The notes under the pieces are model-generated. The model did no database searches, was not told where the DNA came from, and was given only the letters and a program-made list of their open reading frames with translations. Both the position numbers and the translations under genes were made by a program. Below, piece by piece: positions 9,857 through 15,678 of a stretch of DNA of 15,774 bases (its first letter is position 1; the number at the start of each line of letters is the position of its first letter). This stretch comes from a bacterium (GTDB lineage Bacteria > Patescibacteriota > Patescibacteriia > Patescibacteriales > GWC2-42-12): positions 1 through 15,774 of the forward strand of contig JAZDFM010000026.1 of assembly GCA_043807825.1 (NCBI GenBank), in the 5' to 3' direction.

Positions 9857-11320
9857 ATGACATTAAATCAATTAACAATAGCTGAAGCTATAAAAAAGCT
9901 TGATAAAAAAGAAATCACCTCGGTTGAACTTGCCAAGGCGTGTTTGACGCGCGTAAAAAATATTGACGGAAAAATCAAGGCGTGTCTGGCGGTTTGCGAA
10001 GAACAGGCGATGAAAGACGCGGAAAAAGCCGATGAGCGGCGCGCTCAAGGCGAAACTGGAGAATTGCTCGGCATCCCGTATTTTGCCAAAGATAATATTT
10101 TGACTCGCGGCGTAAAAACCACGGCTGCTTCCAAAATTTTGGAAAATTACATCGCGCCTTATGACGCGTCTATTATAAAAAAATTAAAGCGAGCCGGCGC
10201 GGTTCTTTTGGGAAAAACCAATTTGGATGAATTCGCCCATGGGGCTTCAACTGAAAATTCCGCTTTTGGGACGACGCGCAATCCATGGGATTTGTCCCGC
10301 GTTCCCGGGGGTTCTTCCGGCGGGTCGGCCGCCGCGGTCGCGGCTGATATGTGTTTGTTCGCTTTGGGAACGGATACCGGAGGCTCAATCAGATGCCCGG
10401 CAAGTTTTTGCGGAGTCGTCGGCATGAAGCCGACTTATGGCAGAAGCTCCCGCTTCGGCTTGATCGCGATGACAAGCTCAACCGATGTTCCCGGGCCTTT
10501 GGCGAAAACCGTGGGAGACGCCGCGATGATCTTGTCCGCTATCGCGGGAAAAGACGGGAATGATGGGACAACAGTTAAAATCCCCCTTACCCCCTTTGTT
10601 AAAGGGGGTAAAATGCAAGGCTTAACTATCGGCTTGCCTGAAGAATATTTTGTTGAAGGTGCGGAAAAAGGCGTGGAGCAAGCGGTGGAAAAAGCCATTG
10701 AAGATTTGAAAAAACTTGGCGTTAAGTTTAAAAAAGTGAGCCTGCCGCATACGAAATACGGCGTGCCTGCTTACTATATCATCACTCCTTCGGAAATAAG
10801 CTCAAATTTGGCAAGATTTGACGGCATTAAATACGGTTTAAGCATAAACGGCGAAGAAAAGATAAAAGCGGATTTGGCGGATGTCTACGCCAAAAGCCGA
10901 GGAAAAGGCTTTGGTGCCGAAGCCAAACGGAGAATTATGCTCGGAACTTACGCTTTGAGCGCCGGTTATTTTGACGCGTATTATCTGCAGGCGCAAAAAG
11001 TGAGAGTTAAGATAAAACAGGAATTTGACGAAGTTCTGAAGCAAGTTGACTGCCTGCTTACGCCGACCGCTCCGCATGTCGCTTTTAAAATCGGCGAGCA
11101 GTCAGGCGATCCTTTAAAAATGTATCTTGAAGATATTTTCGTTACCGGCGCGTCTTTGGCCGGGTTGCCAGCGATTTCCATTCCATGCGGTTTCAGCCGC
11201 GGCATGCCTGTAGGACTTCAACTGATTGGCAGGCATTTTAATGAAGACTTGCTGTTTAAAATAGGCAATGGTTATGAACAAGCAACGGAATGGCATTTGA
11301 AAAAAGCCGAAATTGTTTAA
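9857..11320 (+). CDS. gatA: Asp/Glu-tRNA(Asn/Gln) amidotransferase subunit A
   Basis: Start placed at ATG 9857 (MTLNQLTIAEAIKKLDKKEITSVEL, a typical GatA N-terminus). Amidase signature GGSSGGSAAAVAA and DTGGSIR. The ORF-track start at 9761 only adds translation of the intergenic repeat. Confidence 0.93.
   Translation: MTLNQLTIAEAIKKLDKKEITSVELAKACLTRVKNIDGKIKACLAVCEEQAMKDAEKADERRAQGETGELLGIPYFAKDNILTRGVKTTAASKILENYIAPYDASIIKKLKRAGAVLLGKTNLDEFAHGASTENSAFGTTRNPWDLSRVPGGSSGGSAAAVAADMCLFALGTDTGGSIRCPASFCGVVGMKPTYGRSSRFGLIAMTSSTDVPGPLAKTVGDAAMILSAIAGKDGNDGTTVKIPLTPFVKGGKMQGLTIGLPEEYFVEGAEKGVEQAVEKAIEDLKKLGVKFKKVSLPHTKYGVPAYYIITPSEISSNLARFDGIKYGLSINGEEKIKADLADVYAKSRGKGFGAEAKRRIMLGTYALSAGYFDAYYLQAQKVRVKIKQEFDEVLKQVDCLLTPTAPHVAFKIGEQSGDPLKMYLEDIFVTGASLAGLPAISIPCGFSRGMPVGLQLIGRHFNEDLLFKIGNGYEQATEWHLKKAEIV
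10577..10614 (+). repeat. KGG-type miniature palindromic element, copy 4, in-frame inside gatA (encodes IPLTPFVKGGK)
   Basis: aaaatcccccttaccccctttgttaaagggggtaaaat. Stem 10590-10597 / 10601-10608. Same strand and same codon phase as the three copies in the surface-protein gene. Confidence 0.85.
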
Positions 11321-11349
11321 TTTTAATTTTTACGCTATAATAGCGAGTA

Positions 11350-11772
11350 ATGAATAAAAAAGATTTAAAAATAATCGGGGCGATGCTTTATGTATGCGAA
11401 GGCACTAAAGCAAGAATTGACAGGAGATATAATAGATTGCTTTATTCTGTTGAATTAACTAATTCAGACCCTAAAATTATAAAAATTTTTAGATTATTTC
11501 TTGATAACATAATAAAAATTGATAAAAATCGCATAAGAGGGCAATTATTTTTTTATCCGGATTTGAATGAAAAAAGATTGATAAATTTTTGGTCAAAAAT
11601 ATCTTCTATCCCATTTTCACAATTTAATAAAAGCATATGTTTAAAAGCGAAAAATGGTAAATTTAAAGCAAATCCTTTGGGGACATTTAAAATAAGGTAT
11701 AGTTGCAAAAAGGATTTTTTAAAAATACAAAAAATGATAGATGATGTTTGGAGAGATGCAAGAGTGGCTTAA
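11350..11772 (+). CDS. hypothetical protein, possible single-motif LAGLIDADG-like homing endonuclease
   Basis: 140-aa AT-rich ORF. The N-terminal IIGAMLYVCEGTK fits the hhGhhh.(D/E)G pattern of LAGLIDADG motifs, and the size is compatible with homodimeric enzymes. This assignment is weak. The last 23 nt overlap tRNA-Ser. Confidence 0.45.
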   Translation: MNKKDLKIIGAMLYVCEGTKARIDRRYNRLLYSVELTNSDPKIIKIFRLFLDNIIKIDKNRIRGQLFFYPDLNEKRLINFWSKISSIPFSQFNKSICLKAKNGKFKANPLGTFKIRYSCKKDFLKIQKMIDDVWRDARVA

Positions 11773-11837
11773 TTGGCAGTCCTGGAAAGACTGTATACCG
11801 CAAGGTATCCAGGGTTCGAATCCCTGTCTCTCCGCCA
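11750..11837 (+). tRNA. tRNA-Ser (anticodon GGA), class II with long variable arm, CCA encoded
   Basis: Folded by hand. Acceptor GGAGAGA/TCTCTCC. 3-bp D stem (CAA/TTG). Anticodon stem CAGTC/GACTG with loop CTGGAAA. Variable arm ATACC-GCAA-GGTAT. T arm CAGGG-TTCGAAT-CCCTG. Discriminator G, then CCA. Confidence 0.9.
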
Positions 11838-11881
11838 GATTTCCAAGTTTGAACCGAAGTAAGATAAGGGGTTTTGGACAA

Positions 11882-11906
11882 AAAAGCTGGGCACCACCCA
11901 GCTTTT
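11882..11906. terminator. intrinsic (potentially bidirectional) terminator downstream of tRNA-Ser
   Basis: AAAAGCTGGG-cacca-CCCAGCTTTT. The GC-containing stem AGCTGGG/CCCAGCT has a 5-nt loop and is flanked by an A-tract upstream and a T-tract downstream. Confidence 0.6.
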
Positions 11907-11923
11907 AAGTTTTGTGCAGTTGT

Positions 11924-11968
11924 TTGCTATATGGCAATTTGGAATATAACACAATGGAATAATATAAT
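11924..11968 (+). promoter_or_regulatory. candidate promoter and C-box-like operator for the controller-protein/endonuclease operon
   Basis: TTGGAA (11939-11944), 18-nt spacer, TATAAT (11963-11968). The -10 ends only 8 nt before the ATG at 11977, implying a leaderless or near-leaderless mRNA. An imperfect palindrome TTGCTATATGGCAA (11924-11937, 12/14 symmetric) abuts the -35. Confidence 0.4.
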
Positions 11969-11976
11969 ATCAACAT

Positions 11977-12198
11977 ATGCCGAGAGCAATATATACAAAA
12001 GATCATAACGCAATCGTTGAACGCTTGAAGACAGCTCGTATTGAGGCTGGACTTGGGCAGGTTGAAGTTGCAAAGAAACTCGGAAAAACTCAATCTTATC
12101 TTTCAAAAATTGAATCAGGGCAAAGACGATTTGATGTATTACAGTTGAAAGAATTTGCAAAGATTTATAATAAATCATTAGACTATTTTGTTAAATAA
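11977..12198 (+). CDS. XRE-family helix-turn-helix protein, likely R-M controller (C) protein
   Basis: 73 aa. RLKTARIEAGLGQVEVAKKLGKTQSYLSKIESGQRRFDVLQL is the classic HTH_3 pattern (Q..lA...g.s...is..E.G.r). Its stop is 3 nt before the next ORF. Confidence 0.8.
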   Translation: MPRAIYTKDHNAIVERLKTARIEAGLGQVEVAKKLGKTQSYLSKIESGQRRFDVLQLKEFAKIYNKSLDYFVK

Positions 12199-12201
12199 TT
12201 T

Positions 12202-12897
12202 ATGTTAGTACAAAAATTCGATAATTTTCTACAATCAGTTGACCTAAAATCCTATCGGGATAAATATAGACCTATTAAAATTGTGGAAATGGATTTACCA
12301 AAAGAGATCCAAGCTATAAACTTACTCTACAAAATATATTGGAACAAGAAAGAGTTCTTGAGTTTTGAAAAATTTTATGAAGAATACCTAAAAGAGTATG
12401 GGGCTGATATTAAAAAATTTCAAGAAAAGACTGGGATGTGCGAGAAGTGTTTTAGTAAAGGATTGCCCGCGAGAATTTATAGAACATGGGCAAGCATTAT
12501 TACTCAGATACATGCTGGCTATGTAGCGGAGTCGGTTTTCGGTGTTGGTACAGTTTCAATGTCAGGGGAGCTTGATCATCAAGGGGCTGATTTTCAAATT
12601 CTGTATAAAGGAAAAATTCTAAATTATCAAGTAAAAAAGAAATCATTCAGTGGTGAGGTAAGACGCGGTAAAGGCGGAGTTAAAACTAAAATAGCTGGCG
12701 AATTTATTGATATTAATTACGAAGTTCCAAGTAGTGATTACTTCGAAAATCCAAAGAAAAAAGACGGTGAGTATAAACTTCCGTACAAAAGATTTCAAGA
12801 TAACAAGGAATTAAAAAGATTTTCAAATGGTTTTGTAGTTTTTACTTCTTACGCTTTTGAACAAAAGAAAAAAGAGATTGATGTAAACTTAAAATAA
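12202..12897 (+). CDS. candidate type II restriction endonuclease (PD-(D/E)xK-like), otherwise hypothetical
   Basis: 231 aa. Placement follows the usual C-then-R operon order, convergent with a methyltransferase. ELDHQGADFQILYKGKILNYQVKKK can be read as E...D-x13-QxK on alternating hydrophobic strands. I recognise no specific REase family, so the functional call rests mainly on context. Confidence 0.45.
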   Translation: MLVQKFDNFLQSVDLKSYRDKYRPIKIVEMDLPKEIQAINLLYKIYWNKKEFLSFEKFYEEYLKEYGADIKKFQEKTGMCEKCFSKGLPARIYRTWASIITQIHAGYVAESVFGVGTVSMSGELDHQGADFQILYKGKILNYQVKKKSFSGEVRRGKGGVKTKIAGEFIDINYEVPSSDYFENPKKKDGEYKLPYKRFQDNKELKRFSNGFVVFTSYAFEQKKKEIDVNLK

Positions 12898-14415
12898 TTT
12901 AGGAATAACTGTTACGGAAGAAATAGTTTTTTCGGCAATTTTTATATAATCAGGATTAATTTCAAACCCGATATAATTTTGACTCAACTCTTTTGCGGCT
13001 GCACATTCAGCCCCTGTTCCGACAAAGGGAACCAAAACCACTCCATCTTTTTTAGGCATGGCTGATTTTATTAATTTTCTGCAAATTTCTAATGGCTTTT
13101 GTGTTGGGTGTTTAACTATCTCGTGATCAGCGTGTTTTTTTAGTTCTCTTGGCTCAAAAACATTTCTTCCACAGGTATTACAGATAAACCATCTTTCATT
13201 CATACCGGCTCCTCCGGCTAATGCTGGTATTTTTATTACATCTCTTGGCAAGGCACCACCCTCGTGTGCCTTATAAACAGTTTCTTGACCGTTTGTACTG
13301 TATCGTCCAATTGTTCCTTTGCGTATTTTCCCAGCCGCTCCATTTAAAAAACCCTCAGTGTACGGCTCTCTTACTTCGTCACGATTAAAAACTGGGCTAT
13401 TTTTCCAAGCACAAATTATAGATTCATGGCTTCGTTGCCAAAAATTTAGAGAAGCAACATTTTTGTTTGTGTAATGCCAAATAAGCCACCTTTTACTTAT
13501 CGGTATTTCAACCGAAAGATAAGCAAGAATTTCGCTAAAACCATAAATAAACATTGTGCCGGTTGGTTTTAAGACTCTAATAGATTCATCTATCCAACTT
13601 TTTGACCAACGAATGTACTCGTTCATTTCTCGTTTATCCATGTTATTACCAAAATCTTTGCCGATATTATATGGTGGATCAATTATAATAACATCACAAC
13701 ATTCATCTGGTAATTTTCTTAATTCTTCAACTGCGTCATTTAAAATAATTTGATTGAGTGGTAATTTATTATTTCGTTTAATATTTTTTGATGTAATCAA
13801 CTCTTCTACAAAATTATTTTCATCGTTTTTTATTACATCAATTACAATACCCTGTATTGTTAGCGGAGTTTGTTTGGAAATAATTATGGGATCCATTGTT
13901 CTGTTGGCTGGCTGAAGTCTAATATGTCCTCTTTCCTTGTAAAACTTTTTTAATGTGGTTTCATAATTATCAATCAACGCTACAATCTTTTGTCCATTTT
14001 CGGCAGTATCTTGTTGTTTAACTAACACGACATCACCATCATTAATATTCTCTTCGATCATGCTGTTACCAATAACTCTTAATGCATAAAAATTGCCGTG
14101 GCTCGGTAATTTGCTCTGTGGTACAGCAACGATTTCTTTTTCTTTAATTGCTTCGATTGGTTGCCCGGCTGCAATATTCCCCATAAGCGGAATATTTATC
14201 ATTTTTTCACTCTCAAAAACAGAAATTGCTCTTGGCTGGTTATCTTCTTTTCTTAAAAAACCTTTTTCTTGAAGTTTTTTAATATGAAAATGGGCAGTAG
14301 AAACAGAAGCTATTTTTAGATGTTTCTTAATTTCTTCAAGAGAAGGGGCATATTTATGCTTGGAATAATATTGTTTTATAAAATCCAAGACATCTTTTTG
14401 TTTTTTAGTAAGCAT
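12889..14415 (-). CDS. LexA-like repressor/autoprotease fused to a beta-class (DPPY) N6-adenine/N4-cytosine DNA methyltransferase
   Basis: I prefer the ATG at 14415 (MLTKKQKDVLDFI, a typical LexA N-terminus) over the TTG at 14430. LexA part: wHTH, then Ala83-Gly84 in IAAGQPIEA, Ser118 in GNSM, Lys156 in TLKKF. MTase part: IIIDPPYN (13669-13680), HPTQKP, and a C-terminal VPFVGTGAE...GFEINPDY (motif IV before motif I, which defines the beta class). The stop overlaps the convergent ORF by 9 nt. Confidence 0.85.
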   Translation of the reverse strand: MLTKKQKDVLDFIKQYYSKHKYAPSLEEIKKHLKIASVSTAHFHIKKLQEKGFLRKEDNQPRAISVFESEKMINIPLMGNIAAGQPIEAIKEKEIVAVPQSKLPSHGNFYALRVIGNSMIEENINDGDVVLVKQQDTAENGQKIVALIDNYETTLKKFYKERGHIRLQPANRTMDPIIISKQTPLTIQGIVIDVIKNDENNFVEELITSKNIKRNNKLPLNQIILNDAVEELRKLPDECCDVIIIDPPYNIGKDFGNNMDKREMNEYIRWSKSWIDESIRVLKPTGTMFIYGFSEILAYLSVEIPISKRWLIWHYTNKNVASLNFWQRSHESIICAWKNSPVFNRDEVREPYTEGFLNGAAGKIRKGTIGRYSTNGQETVYKAHEGGALPRDVIKIPALAGGAGMNERWFICNTCGRNVFEPRELKKHADHEIVKHPTQKPLEICRKLIKSAMPKKDGVVLVPFVGTGAECAAAKELSQNYIGFEINPDYIKIAEKTISSVTVIPKLF

Positions 14416-14419
14416 ATTA

Positions 14420-14481
14420 TTGACAGACAATTTTTGTTAGGTGTATAATAGTATTATAGAAAATAAATAGAAAACTTACAA
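14420..14481. promoter_or_regulatory. overlapping divergent promoter pair with palindromic and phased-repeat candidate operator
   Basis: Plus strand: TTGACA (14420-14425), 18-nt spacer, TATAAT (14444-14449). Minus strand: TTGTAA (complement of 14476-14481), 17-nt spacer, TATAAT (complement of 14453-14458). The two -10 boxes form the palindrome TATAATAgTATTATA (14444-14458). ATAGAAAA occurs twice, 11 bp apart (14456-14463 and 14467-14474). Confidence 0.5.
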
Positions 14482-14503
14482 TAGCCCACTTATCCACAAC
14501 TGC

Positions 14504-15475
14504 ATGCCAAAATCATTTTTTTCAGAAAAAATAGATTTAATAATGAAATCTAGGGAGGCCATGCTTTCTGCTGTTCAGATTTATAATAATCCACTGATTT
14601 TATTTAAAACAGAATCTTTTATTGTCCTTTCTTTAATTGCATGGACTTATCTTTTGCATTCGCACTACAGAGCGATCGGGGTTGATTACAGATATTTTGA
14701 AAAAAATGGTTCCCGAAAAAGATTTATTAAAAATCCTGACGGAAGTATAAAATATTGGGATCTTAAGGAATGTATTTCAAAAGAATTTTGTCCGCTAGAT
14801 AAAGATACGAATAATAATCTTTCATTTTTAATTGGTTTAAGAAATCAAATAGAACATCGTAAGGCAAGCGGATTAGATTCTTGTCTCTCAGCTCGCTATC
14901 AGGCCCGTGCTTTAAATTTGAATTTTTATCTTAAAAAATTGCATGGTGAAAAATACGGACTTGATAATAACTTGGCATTAAGCTTGCAGTTTTCAGAATT
15001 AGACGATTCGCAATCAAAGATATTAAAAGATAAAGAATCCTTAATACCTCAAAATATTATTTCTTATCTTGCTGATTTTGATAGTAAGTTATCGGAAAGC
15101 GAAATAAAAAGCGATCGTTTTGCATACCGTCTTTTATTTACTAAGGTTTTAGCAAAAAGGAAGGGGCAAGCCGATCGCGTTATTGAGTTCATAGATCCAA
15201 AGTCTGATTTAGCAAAGAATATTTCTAAAGAATATTGGATCAAAGAAGAAACAGAAAAGCCAAAATTTTCAGCCACTCAGACAATTCAAAAGGTAAGAGA
15301 AGCAGGATATAAAAATTTTAGTATGCATCAGCACACGCAATTTTGGCAAAAACATGATGGAAAAAATCCAAATAAGGGATTCGGTTCAATGATTGTCAAA
15401 ACTTGGTGTTGGTATCAAAATTGGGCGGATTATATTATTAGCGAATTAAACAAGATAAAAAAAATAATTATTTAA
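14504..15475 (+). CDS. DUF3644-like protein with HEPN-type Rx4H motif (candidate RNase / abortive-infection effector)
   Basis: 323 aa. The N-terminal AVQIYNNP...ESFIVLSLIAWTYLLHS resembles the DUF3644 pattern as I remember it. LIGLRNQIEHR (R113 at 14840-14842, H118 at 14855-14857) matches the HEPN R-N-x-x-x-H signature seen in AbiD/AbiF-type proteins. Confidence 0.55.
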   Translation: MPKSFFSEKIDLIMKSREAMLSAVQIYNNPLILFKTESFIVLSLIAWTYLLHSHYRAIGVDYRYFEKNGSRKRFIKNPDGSIKYWDLKECISKEFCPLDKDTNNNLSFLIGLRNQIEHRKASGLDSCLSARYQARALNLNFYLKKLHGEKYGLDNNLALSLQFSELDDSQSKILKDKESLIPQNIISYLADFDSKLSESEIKSDRFAYRLLFTKVLAKRKGQADRVIEFIDPKSDLAKNISKEYWIKEETEKPKFSATQTIQKVREAGYKNFSMHQHTQFWQKHDGKNPNKGFGSMIVKTWCWYQNWADYIISELNKIKKIII

Positions 15476-15641
15476 TCGAATAATCAACCTCATTTTTGCC
15501 CCTGTTGGACTCTGGGCGAGGTGTTTCAAACCATTCCGGATGAACCTTGAAGATACGCCTTAATTCCTGTATGCTTTTATCAATATCCTTGAATTTGAGC
15601 CGCTTTTTCGGTTCAAACTTCGGGACATCGTCCCCGCCAAT
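15468..15641 (-). pseudogene. possible start-less gene remnant (57 codons)
   Basis: Hand translation of the minus strand: IGGDDVPKFEPKKRLKFKDIDKSIQELRRIFKVHPEWFETPRPESNRGKNEVDYSIK*. It is bounded upstream by TAA and has no ATG/GTG/TTG start. Composition is protein-like, and the region is more GC-rich than the island beside it. Confidence 0.2.
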
Positions 15642-15678
15642 TTACAGTTTCTCAAAAATATTTTAAAATATAAAGAAC

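Follow-up and report, generated by a model that had tools for sequence, protein, structure and literature searches.

A predicted mobile restriction-modification cassette of Patescibacteria with an ordinary controller for its endonuclease and a complete LexA fused to its methyltransferase

The stretch of DNA analysed here, referred to as the window, comprises 15,774 nucleotides and corresponds to positions 1 to 15,774 of contig JAZDFM010000026.1 (GenBank assembly GCA_043807825.1). Its source is an uncultured Patescibacteria bacterium, represented by a metagenome-assembled genome (MAG) of 826 kb (47 contigs, 92% complete). The window carries a putative type II restriction-modification (R-M) cassette, whose genes for a small controller-like protein (C), a restriction endonuclease (R) and a fusion of LexA to a DNA methyltransferase (LexA-M, or M) together span 2.4 kb. 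For comparison, 51 related loci were collected from species-representative genomes; where individual loci or contigs of the genome have to be told apart, they are given by L and C numbers, respectively. The central features of the cassette are as follows (amino acids, aa; helix-turn-helix, HTH; open reading frame, ORF; methyltransferase, MTase).

11929..11962, no strand: C-box, two overlapping imperfect dyads, ATATGGCA-ATT-TGGAATAT and ATATAACA-CAA-TGGAATAA, predicted by covariation
11939..11968, plus strand: C-R promoter TTGGAA-18-TATAAT (promoter scan, 10/12 matches)
11977..12198, plus strand: C gene, 73 aa, XRE/HTH_3 (Pfam HTH_3, E = 1e-14; ORF map)
12202..12897, plus strand: R gene, 231 aa, TaqI-family type II restriction endonuclease (PF09573; PADLOC REase_II; ORF map)
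12889..12897, no strand: 3'-end overlap between the convergent genes R and M, 9 bp, stop-inclusive (ORF map)
12889..14415, minus strand: LexA-MTase fusion gene, 508 aa from ATG (Pfam LexA_DNA_bind, Peptidase_S24 and N6_N4_Mtase; ORF map)
12928..13695, minus strand: beta-class DNA MTase domain, DPPY motif, probably N6-adenine (PF01555, E = 3e-37; PADLOC MTase_II)
13840..14190, minus strand: LexA S24 autopeptidase/dimerisation domain (alignment to T. maritima and E. coli LexA)
14164-14169 and 14062-14064, minus strand: Ala83-Gly84 cleavage site and Ser118, respectively (LexA alignment)
14227..14412, minus strand: LexA winged-HTH DNA-binding domain, recognition helix SVSTAHFH (PF01726, E = 4.5e-17)
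14453..14481, minus strand: M promoter TTGTAA-17-TATAAT (promoter scan, 10/12 matches)
14456..14473, minus strand: predicted LexA operator, direct repeat TTTCTAT-TTAT-TTTCTAT, between the -35 and -10 elements

The ORF map agreed with an earlier note on this DNA, in which a 73-aa XRE-type protein was said to be followed 3 nt later by a 231-aa ORF, both converging on the LexA-methyltransferase gene, with the 3' ends overlapping at 12889-12897. All of these coordinates held. The start of LexA-M was placed at the ATG at 14415 and not at the TTG at 14430, because homologues of 507-508 aa cover the 508-aa product completely (100%). All three genes are under purifying selection, with ratios of non-synonymous to synonymous substitution rates (dN/dS) of 0.03-0.15 (0.15 for C and 0.03-0.09 for R).

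The N-terminal 200 residues of LexA-M reached 189 bits with the NCBIfam lexA equivalog profile TIGR00498, compared to a cut-off of 110.95, and aligned with the LexA proteins of T. maritima and E. coli (3k2z and 1jhh) at the Ala-Gly site, the serine (GNSM) and the lysine. Possessing the winged HTH, the Ala-Gly site and the Ser/Lys dyad, and scoring above the equivalog cut-off, this part was classified as a LexA protein. A set of 133 fusions was then aligned, which includes unrelated MTases and LexA parts of only ~51% identity; the Ala, Gly and Ser residues were found in 133/133 of them and the Lys in 132/133, with a gap at this position in one. Because the cleavage residues are conserved, we infer that LexA-M may be cleaved in response to DNA damage. 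RecA is encoded in this genome. The nearest solved relatives of the MTase part were M.RsrI, M.MboIIA and CcrM, all of them beta-class adenine enzymes. The same three-domain architecture (501-520 aa) is shared by >120 clusters of proteins, drawn from assemblies of JGI, ENA, NCBI and Logan; the fusion is present in 40+ species-level genomes, and a LexA within an open frame of >=470 aa was encoded by ~22/400 sampled genomes. Elsewhere, LexA is fused to several unrelated methylases, and some of those cassettes carry the same C family.

The predicted LexA operator overlaps the -10 element of the M promoter. The direct repeat was present in almost all fusion promoters, with a unit that tracks the recognition helix: SVSTAHFH is paired with TTTCTAT, SVSTVDFY with TTTCTAG and (V/I)H(E/Q)H with TTTCGG(T/G). 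The canonical LexA of this genome (210 aa, contig C45) has the helix SPATIHAH and the repeat TTTCGTA/GTTCGTG in its own promoter, and a direct repeat with the same 11-bp period precedes the canonical lexA genes of other Patescibacteria. That LexA of Patescibacteria recognises a direct repeat is mentioned in a passage of PMC7739468 citing Sanchez-Osuna 2017. Within this genome, the TTTCTAT variant occurred only at the two cassette copies (the one in the window and a second one on contig C24), so the fused LexA is likely to be a private regulator; it does not qualify as the repressor of the cell's SOS regulon, and a separate canonical LexA exists. The possibility that the fused LexA shares the operator of the host LexA was considered and rejected, since the repeat units differ. 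Autorepression of M by its LexA head is well supported as a prediction from position and covariation.

The R protein matched PF09573 (RE_TaqI) with an E value of 8e-36 and 124 bits (cut-off 26.1) over profile positions 2-219 of 229, and PADLOC REase_II with an E value of 6e-34; its homologues are named 'TaqI family restriction endonuclease' by NCBI. In an alignment of 27 homologues, E110, D130 and Q143-V-K145 were invariant. The structural model of R (mean predicted local distance difference test, pLDDT, 89.8) assigns E110, D130 and Q143xK145 to a long helix and to strands one and two of the sheet, which is consistent with the usual PD-(D/E)xK arrangement. A structure of R.TaqI was not detectable among solved structures by sequence search. 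An endonuclease (RE_TaqI, 124 bits) thus adjoins an MTase (N6_N4_Mtase, 129 bits, DPPY), and by its gene content the locus was classified as a type II R-M system. A TaqI-like R was adjacent and convergent to the orthologous LexA-MTase in ~28/36 loci. Of 400 evenly sampled Patescibacteria genomes, four contained RE_TaqI, and the orthologous fusion was present in 4/4; the two genes were adjacent and convergent in three of these, and in the fourth the fusion was located on another contig, at the contig end. The proposal of the earlier note that the 231-aa protein is a nuclease, which would have fallen if homologous neighbourhoods never paired it with a methyltransferase, is therefore supported by the RE_TaqI and PADLOC matches and by its pairing with LexA-MTase in nearly all neighbourhoods.

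The genome contains 210 TCGA sites compared to 2285 expected, corresponding to an observed/expected ratio (O/E) of 0.092 or a ~10-fold depletion. TCGA was also the most depleted 4-bp palindrome in the flanks of orthologous cassettes, with O/E values of 0.41 for cassettes with R and 0.29 for those with M only; around loci where LexA is fused to other MTases, the value was 0.80. Of the seven TCGA sites in the window, five are located inside the cassette. Since R belongs to the TaqI family and TCGA is depleted, the system likely recognises TCGA.

The C gene is located immediately upstream of R in the same orientation and ends 3 nt before the R start codon. The dyads of the C-box cover the -35 and -10 elements of the C-R promoter, whose -10 element ends 8 nt 5' of the C ATG; the C-R mRNA would therefore be leaderless or nearly so. 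A two-dyad layout precedes every C homologue, and across 17 loci the half-sites covary with the C helix: GKTQSY..ESGQRR is paired with TGGAATAT and KKPQSY..E(R/Q)GERR with TGGGATAT or TAGGATAT. A small HTH gene with a paired dyad operator over its own promoter, as predicted from this covariation, is the arrangement expected of a controller. When C was compared with PDB sequences at E<=1e-3, XRE proteins and the 434 repressor were matched, and no solved classical C protein was (C.PvuII, C.AhdI, C.Esp1396I and C.BclI were considered); by sequence, C is thus not a member of the classical group. Regulation of M by C, as in Esp1396I, was also considered and was rejected, because no C-box dyad was present near the M promoter. 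At the level of sequence, the C-R layout is that of a classical controller design, as the earlier note had described it. The same note had assigned separate regulators to C-R and to M, and two independent regulators are indeed well supported, given that the C-box and the private LexA operator both emerge from covariation.

The 9-bp overlap between the R and M genes was found in 23 of 30 orthologous loci, with 4 bp in three and a gap of 4-13 nt in three others. It is thus inherited and not due to chance. In LexA-MTase cassettes of other specificities, the overlap with the convergent partner ranges from 4 to 68 bp. A search for terminator-like sites near the 3' ends of R and M yielded none except a weak 5-bp hairpin at 13214-13227 (plus strand), located 317 nt into M, in line with the previous suggestion that no terminator separates the two genes. 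As terminator-like structures are missing near the junction, the convergent R and M transcripts probably overlap, and antisense interference between the two genes may follow. Control by antisense RNA or convergent promoters is known from R-M systems such as EcoRI (PMC3874152). A 22-nt stretch in R (12407-12428) is 95% complementary to the plus strand within the LexA part of M (14264-14285), so that a near-identical 22-mer encoding IKK(F/L)QEK is present in both mRNAs; it is not conserved in R homologues and is probably a coincidence.

With its C-R operon convergent to a methylase unit and a C protein predicted to act via a paired operator, the cassette resembles AhdI and Esp1396I (PMC2275141; PMC2691842). 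In the convergent arrangement of AhdI, moreover, CR and M are each governed by an independent regulatory loop of their own (PMC2275141). However, the M loop of AhdI operates by methylation of a promoter site and in Esp1396I C itself represses M (PMC2691842), whereas here M carries a fused LexA with its own direct-repeat operator; a further difference is that none of the classical C proteins of solved structure was matched by C at E<=1e-3. The earlier two-regulator proposal therefore stands as far as the two loops are concerned, which are supported by covariation, but the two-loop convergent design as such has a precedent in AhdI (PMC2275141). Methylases of the M.SsoII, M.Ecl18kI, M.EcoRII and M.MspI type repress their own promoters via an N-terminal DNA-binding part (PMC3874152). 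That part is a short HTH on a C5-cytosine MTase without a protease, whereas a complete LexA (winged HTH, cleavage loop and S24 Ser/Lys dyad) is here attached to a beta-class N6A/N4C-type MTase and would potentially be cleavable upon a signal. The operator in the present case is predicted from position and covariation, and both the DNA-binding domain and the MTase class differ, so that the likeness to the SsoII type does not reflect homology. R is related to R.TaqI of Thermus (T^CGA) in that it belongs to RE_TaqI over nearly its full length and the TCGA depletion fits this specificity. It differs in being shorter (231 aa), in its beta-class PF01555 partner and in the addition of C and LexA regulators to the cassette. 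The LexA part shares with LexA (TIGR00498) full-length homology, an intact cleavage site and dyad and a direct-repeat operator with an 11-bp period. It differs in being fused to an enzyme and in having an operator variant that occurs only at the cassette, which sets it apart from the SOS regulator of the cell. No description of a LexA-methyltransferase fusion was found in the literature searched by full text; Sanchez-Osuna et al. 2017 may mention fusions. What appears to be new is the use of a complete, apparently cleavage-competent LexA for the self-repression of a methylase, and the interest of the system rests on this LexA-methylase design more than on the C-R layout or the overlap.

It has long been asked how type II R-M systems keep from killing the host while methylation falls behind, as happens upon entry, following repair synthesis or during stress. 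The known answers comprise C proteins, autorepression of the methylase, methylation of promoters and antisense RNA. For the present cassette, we propose that transcription of C and R would start at a weak promoter, near-leaderless and lying within the two-dyad C-box, and that C would therefore delay and then cap endonuclease synthesis. The M gene would give rise to one polypeptide, in which a complete LexA precedes a beta-class N6-adenine MTase. Its LexA head would bind the private operator TTTCTAT-N4-TTTCTAT between the -35 and -10 elements, leading to homeostatic autorepression of M, and the operator-bound protein would also block the opposing promoter, from which the adjacent DUF3644/HEPN gene is read (see below). 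RecA-ssDNA (single-stranded DNA) filaments, arising from phage attack, repair or the action of the cassette's own endonuclease on under-methylated DNA, would serve as the trigger. They would promote cleavage at Ala83-Gly84, free the operator and raise the expression of M and of DUF3644. The outcome would be a feedback from damage to methylation that is functionally akin to restriction alleviation, with the ratio of R to M expected to shift in favour of M.

At the sequence level, the locus is a real, mobile R-M cassette with an ordinary controller for R and a complete LexA fused to M, and a damage response that ties self-protection to DNA damage probably exists. For the reading as a whole, a ~3.7-kb horizontally acquired type II R-M system with damage-to-methylation feedback via LexA-M, we consider the odds favourable by a modest measure. 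More tentatively, and with appreciably less confidence, LexA-headed methylases might represent a general design of R-M control in Patescibacteria: RecA-activating damage, including the system's own cuts, would free the methylase and boost methylation (and here also the HEPN protein), and the LexA head, promoter and operator, together with a DnaA-box-like site, would form a module that is mobile between unrelated methylases, beside a swappable C-R module. If the proposal is correct, a methylase with a complete LexA would add a direct DNA-damage input, making it a type II counterpart of restriction alleviation, and cleavage of LexA-M upon damage would provide type II systems with a built-in autoimmunity feedback. 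The pairs of operators and recognition helices would constitute a natural set of orthogonal LexA-operator pairs. The hosts belong to a group of ultra-small bacteria about whose defence biology almost nothing is known.

Several observations weigh against this reading. R.TaqI is classically paired with a gamma-class MTase (M.TaqI type) and not with a beta-class enzyme. No PDB structure matched the R model significantly in a Foldseek search, the lowest E value being 0.33; the 50 highest-ranking hits, none of them significant, were almost exclusively PD-(D/E)xK nucleases (Hjc, HincII, EcoRV and RecU). ACGT is as depleted genome-wide as TCGA (78 sites vs 966 expected, O/E 0.081). C is absent from about half of the orthologous loci that have R and LexA-M, and was therefore regarded as an optional, swappable module that is dispensable for the design. 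Finally, the S24-MTase fragment released by cleavage might be degraded, which would reverse the predicted R:M shift. Apart from these points, it was noted that the depletion of ACGT suggests a second restriction specificity in the genome, and that further PF01555-like methylase genes are located on contigs C33, C6 and C19.

Four other explanations were weighed against damage-to-methylation feedback. The LexA head could be a constitutive autorepressor and dimerisation module like the N-terminus of M.SsoII, with no damage response in vivo. Autorepression by MTases with an N-terminal DNA-binding part is an established form of R-M control (PMC3874152), and the operator position fits simple autorepression. 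This alternative was nevertheless judged unlikely: a lack of relevance of cleavage is hard to reconcile with the invariance of the cleavage residues (Ala-Gly and Ser/Lys) across 133 fusions with LexA identities down to ~51% and different MTase families, and RecA is present in the genome. A damage-triggered suicide switch appears more doubtful still. In this scenario, cleavage would expose degrons and lead to destruction of the methylase fragment; upon damage caused by phage, methylation would fall while R and the HEPN protein, released from repression, would bring about death or arrest of the cell as a form of abortive infection. Consistent with it, the N-terminal cleavage product would carry ...IAA at its C-terminus, which we take to resemble the ssrA-like end (degron) of cleaved E. 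coli LexA, and the HEPN/DUF3644 gene (PDC-S19) is under the same operator. However, methylation outlasts the loss of M, so that the effect would be slow, derepression of the M promoter would resupply M, and DUF3644 is missing from most orthologous cassettes.

An inactive cassette, composed of a decaying endonuclease gene beside a solitary regulatory methylase, would explain why some related loci have M but no R, or in one case a disrupted R (L008, L018, L019, L023, L032 and L010), and why the DUF3644 gene of the C24 copy is interrupted. It is highly improbable for the window, where R is of full length, retains all family-invariant residues and evolves with a dN/dS of 0.03-0.09, in a genome in which TCGA is 10-fold depleted. 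Nothing other than the MAG origin of the sequence suggests that a lexA gene and a separate methylase gene were joined artificially into the LexA-MTase ORF by misassembly or a frameshift. With >120 clusters, 40+ species-level genomes and a second copy in the same genome, this idea is effectively refuted, and its likelihood is negligible. We therefore retain damage-to-methylation feedback as the preferred reading.

The cassette is flanked by further features, listed below.

11750..11837, plus strand: tRNA-Ser(GGA), left neighbour of the cassette (ARAGORN)
11882..11906, plus strand: terminator-like hairpin (10-bp stem and T run), predicted to insulate the cassette from tRNA read-through
14420..14449, plus strand: DUF3644 promoter TTGACA-18-TATAAT (promoter scan, 12/12 matches)
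14490..14498, minus strand: DnaA-box-like 9-mer TGTGGATAA, upstream of the M promoter
14504..15475, plus strand: DUF3644/HEPN-like gene (PF12358, E = 6e-52; PADLOC PDC-S19, E = 7e-127)

The DUF3644 promoter begins within the 5' untranslated region of M and fires across the LexA operator. DUF3644 accompanies the cassette in C24, L002 and L003, and most orthologous cassettes are devoid of it. Even loci that lack DUF3644 retain the TGTCAA motif immediately 5' of the M start codon, which suggests that a promoter directed outwards belongs to the LexA-M module. The 9-mer TGTGGATAA was found as an exact match in 31/43 fusion promoters, compared to 0.09 expected from shuffles. It is positioned 9-16 bp upstream of the LexA direct-repeat operator and also occurs at several canonical lexA promoters of Patescibacteria (loci of this element: L001-L049, L059, L062, L063, L069 and L071). 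It could serve as an input of replication status or be part of an extended LexA site. The Bac_DnaA profile gave no match in this 92%-complete MAG, which leaves the DnaA reading of TGTGGATAA without an anchor.

The G+C content of the cassette (C, R, LexA-M and DUF3644) is 32.6%, compared to 39.9% in the remaining window. The terminator-like hairpin at 11882-11906 is kept in L001-L003, and several orthologous cassettes adjoin a tRNA gene. In several distant lineages (L004, L007, L013 and L021), R is located directly 3' of a tRNA gene; L007 also has a GatA homologue nearby (50% identity; 10781-12262), as in the window, and its R and M proteins are 77-86% identical to those of the window. This recurrence suggests that the same tRNA-linked site has been used repeatedly, either for insertion or for recombination. 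Att-like repeats of the tRNA-Ser 3' end were searched for at the far side of the cassette and not found, and neither a recombinase nor an att repeat was detected next to the window cassette. Some LexA-MTase cassettes of other specificities are flanked by large serine-recombinase-like ORFs with an N-terminal YxRxS-type motif (L042 8653-10167, L043 6247-6498, L044 7488-9470 and L045 9050-10585), which hint at carriage on integrative elements.

The second copy of the cassette (contig C24:2381-6035) corresponds to positions 11992-15650 of the window with ~90% nucleotide identity. It is a mosaic, with amino-acid identities of 65% for C, 83% for R, 96% for LexA-M and 98% for DUF3644, and its C protein belongs to the other C-box class. 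This copy is located ~520 bp from a tRNA-Ala gene, and its DUF3644 gene is interrupted by a stop codon. The two copies in the MAG may derive from one cell or from two binned strains. Beyond DUF3644, ~175 bp (15476-15650 of the window) are still shared with the C24 copy, where they form the 3' part of a 90-aa ORF on the minus strand (C24 5853-6125). The truncation of this ORF in the window defines the right boundary of the cassette, shortly ahead of a pilin-like gene.

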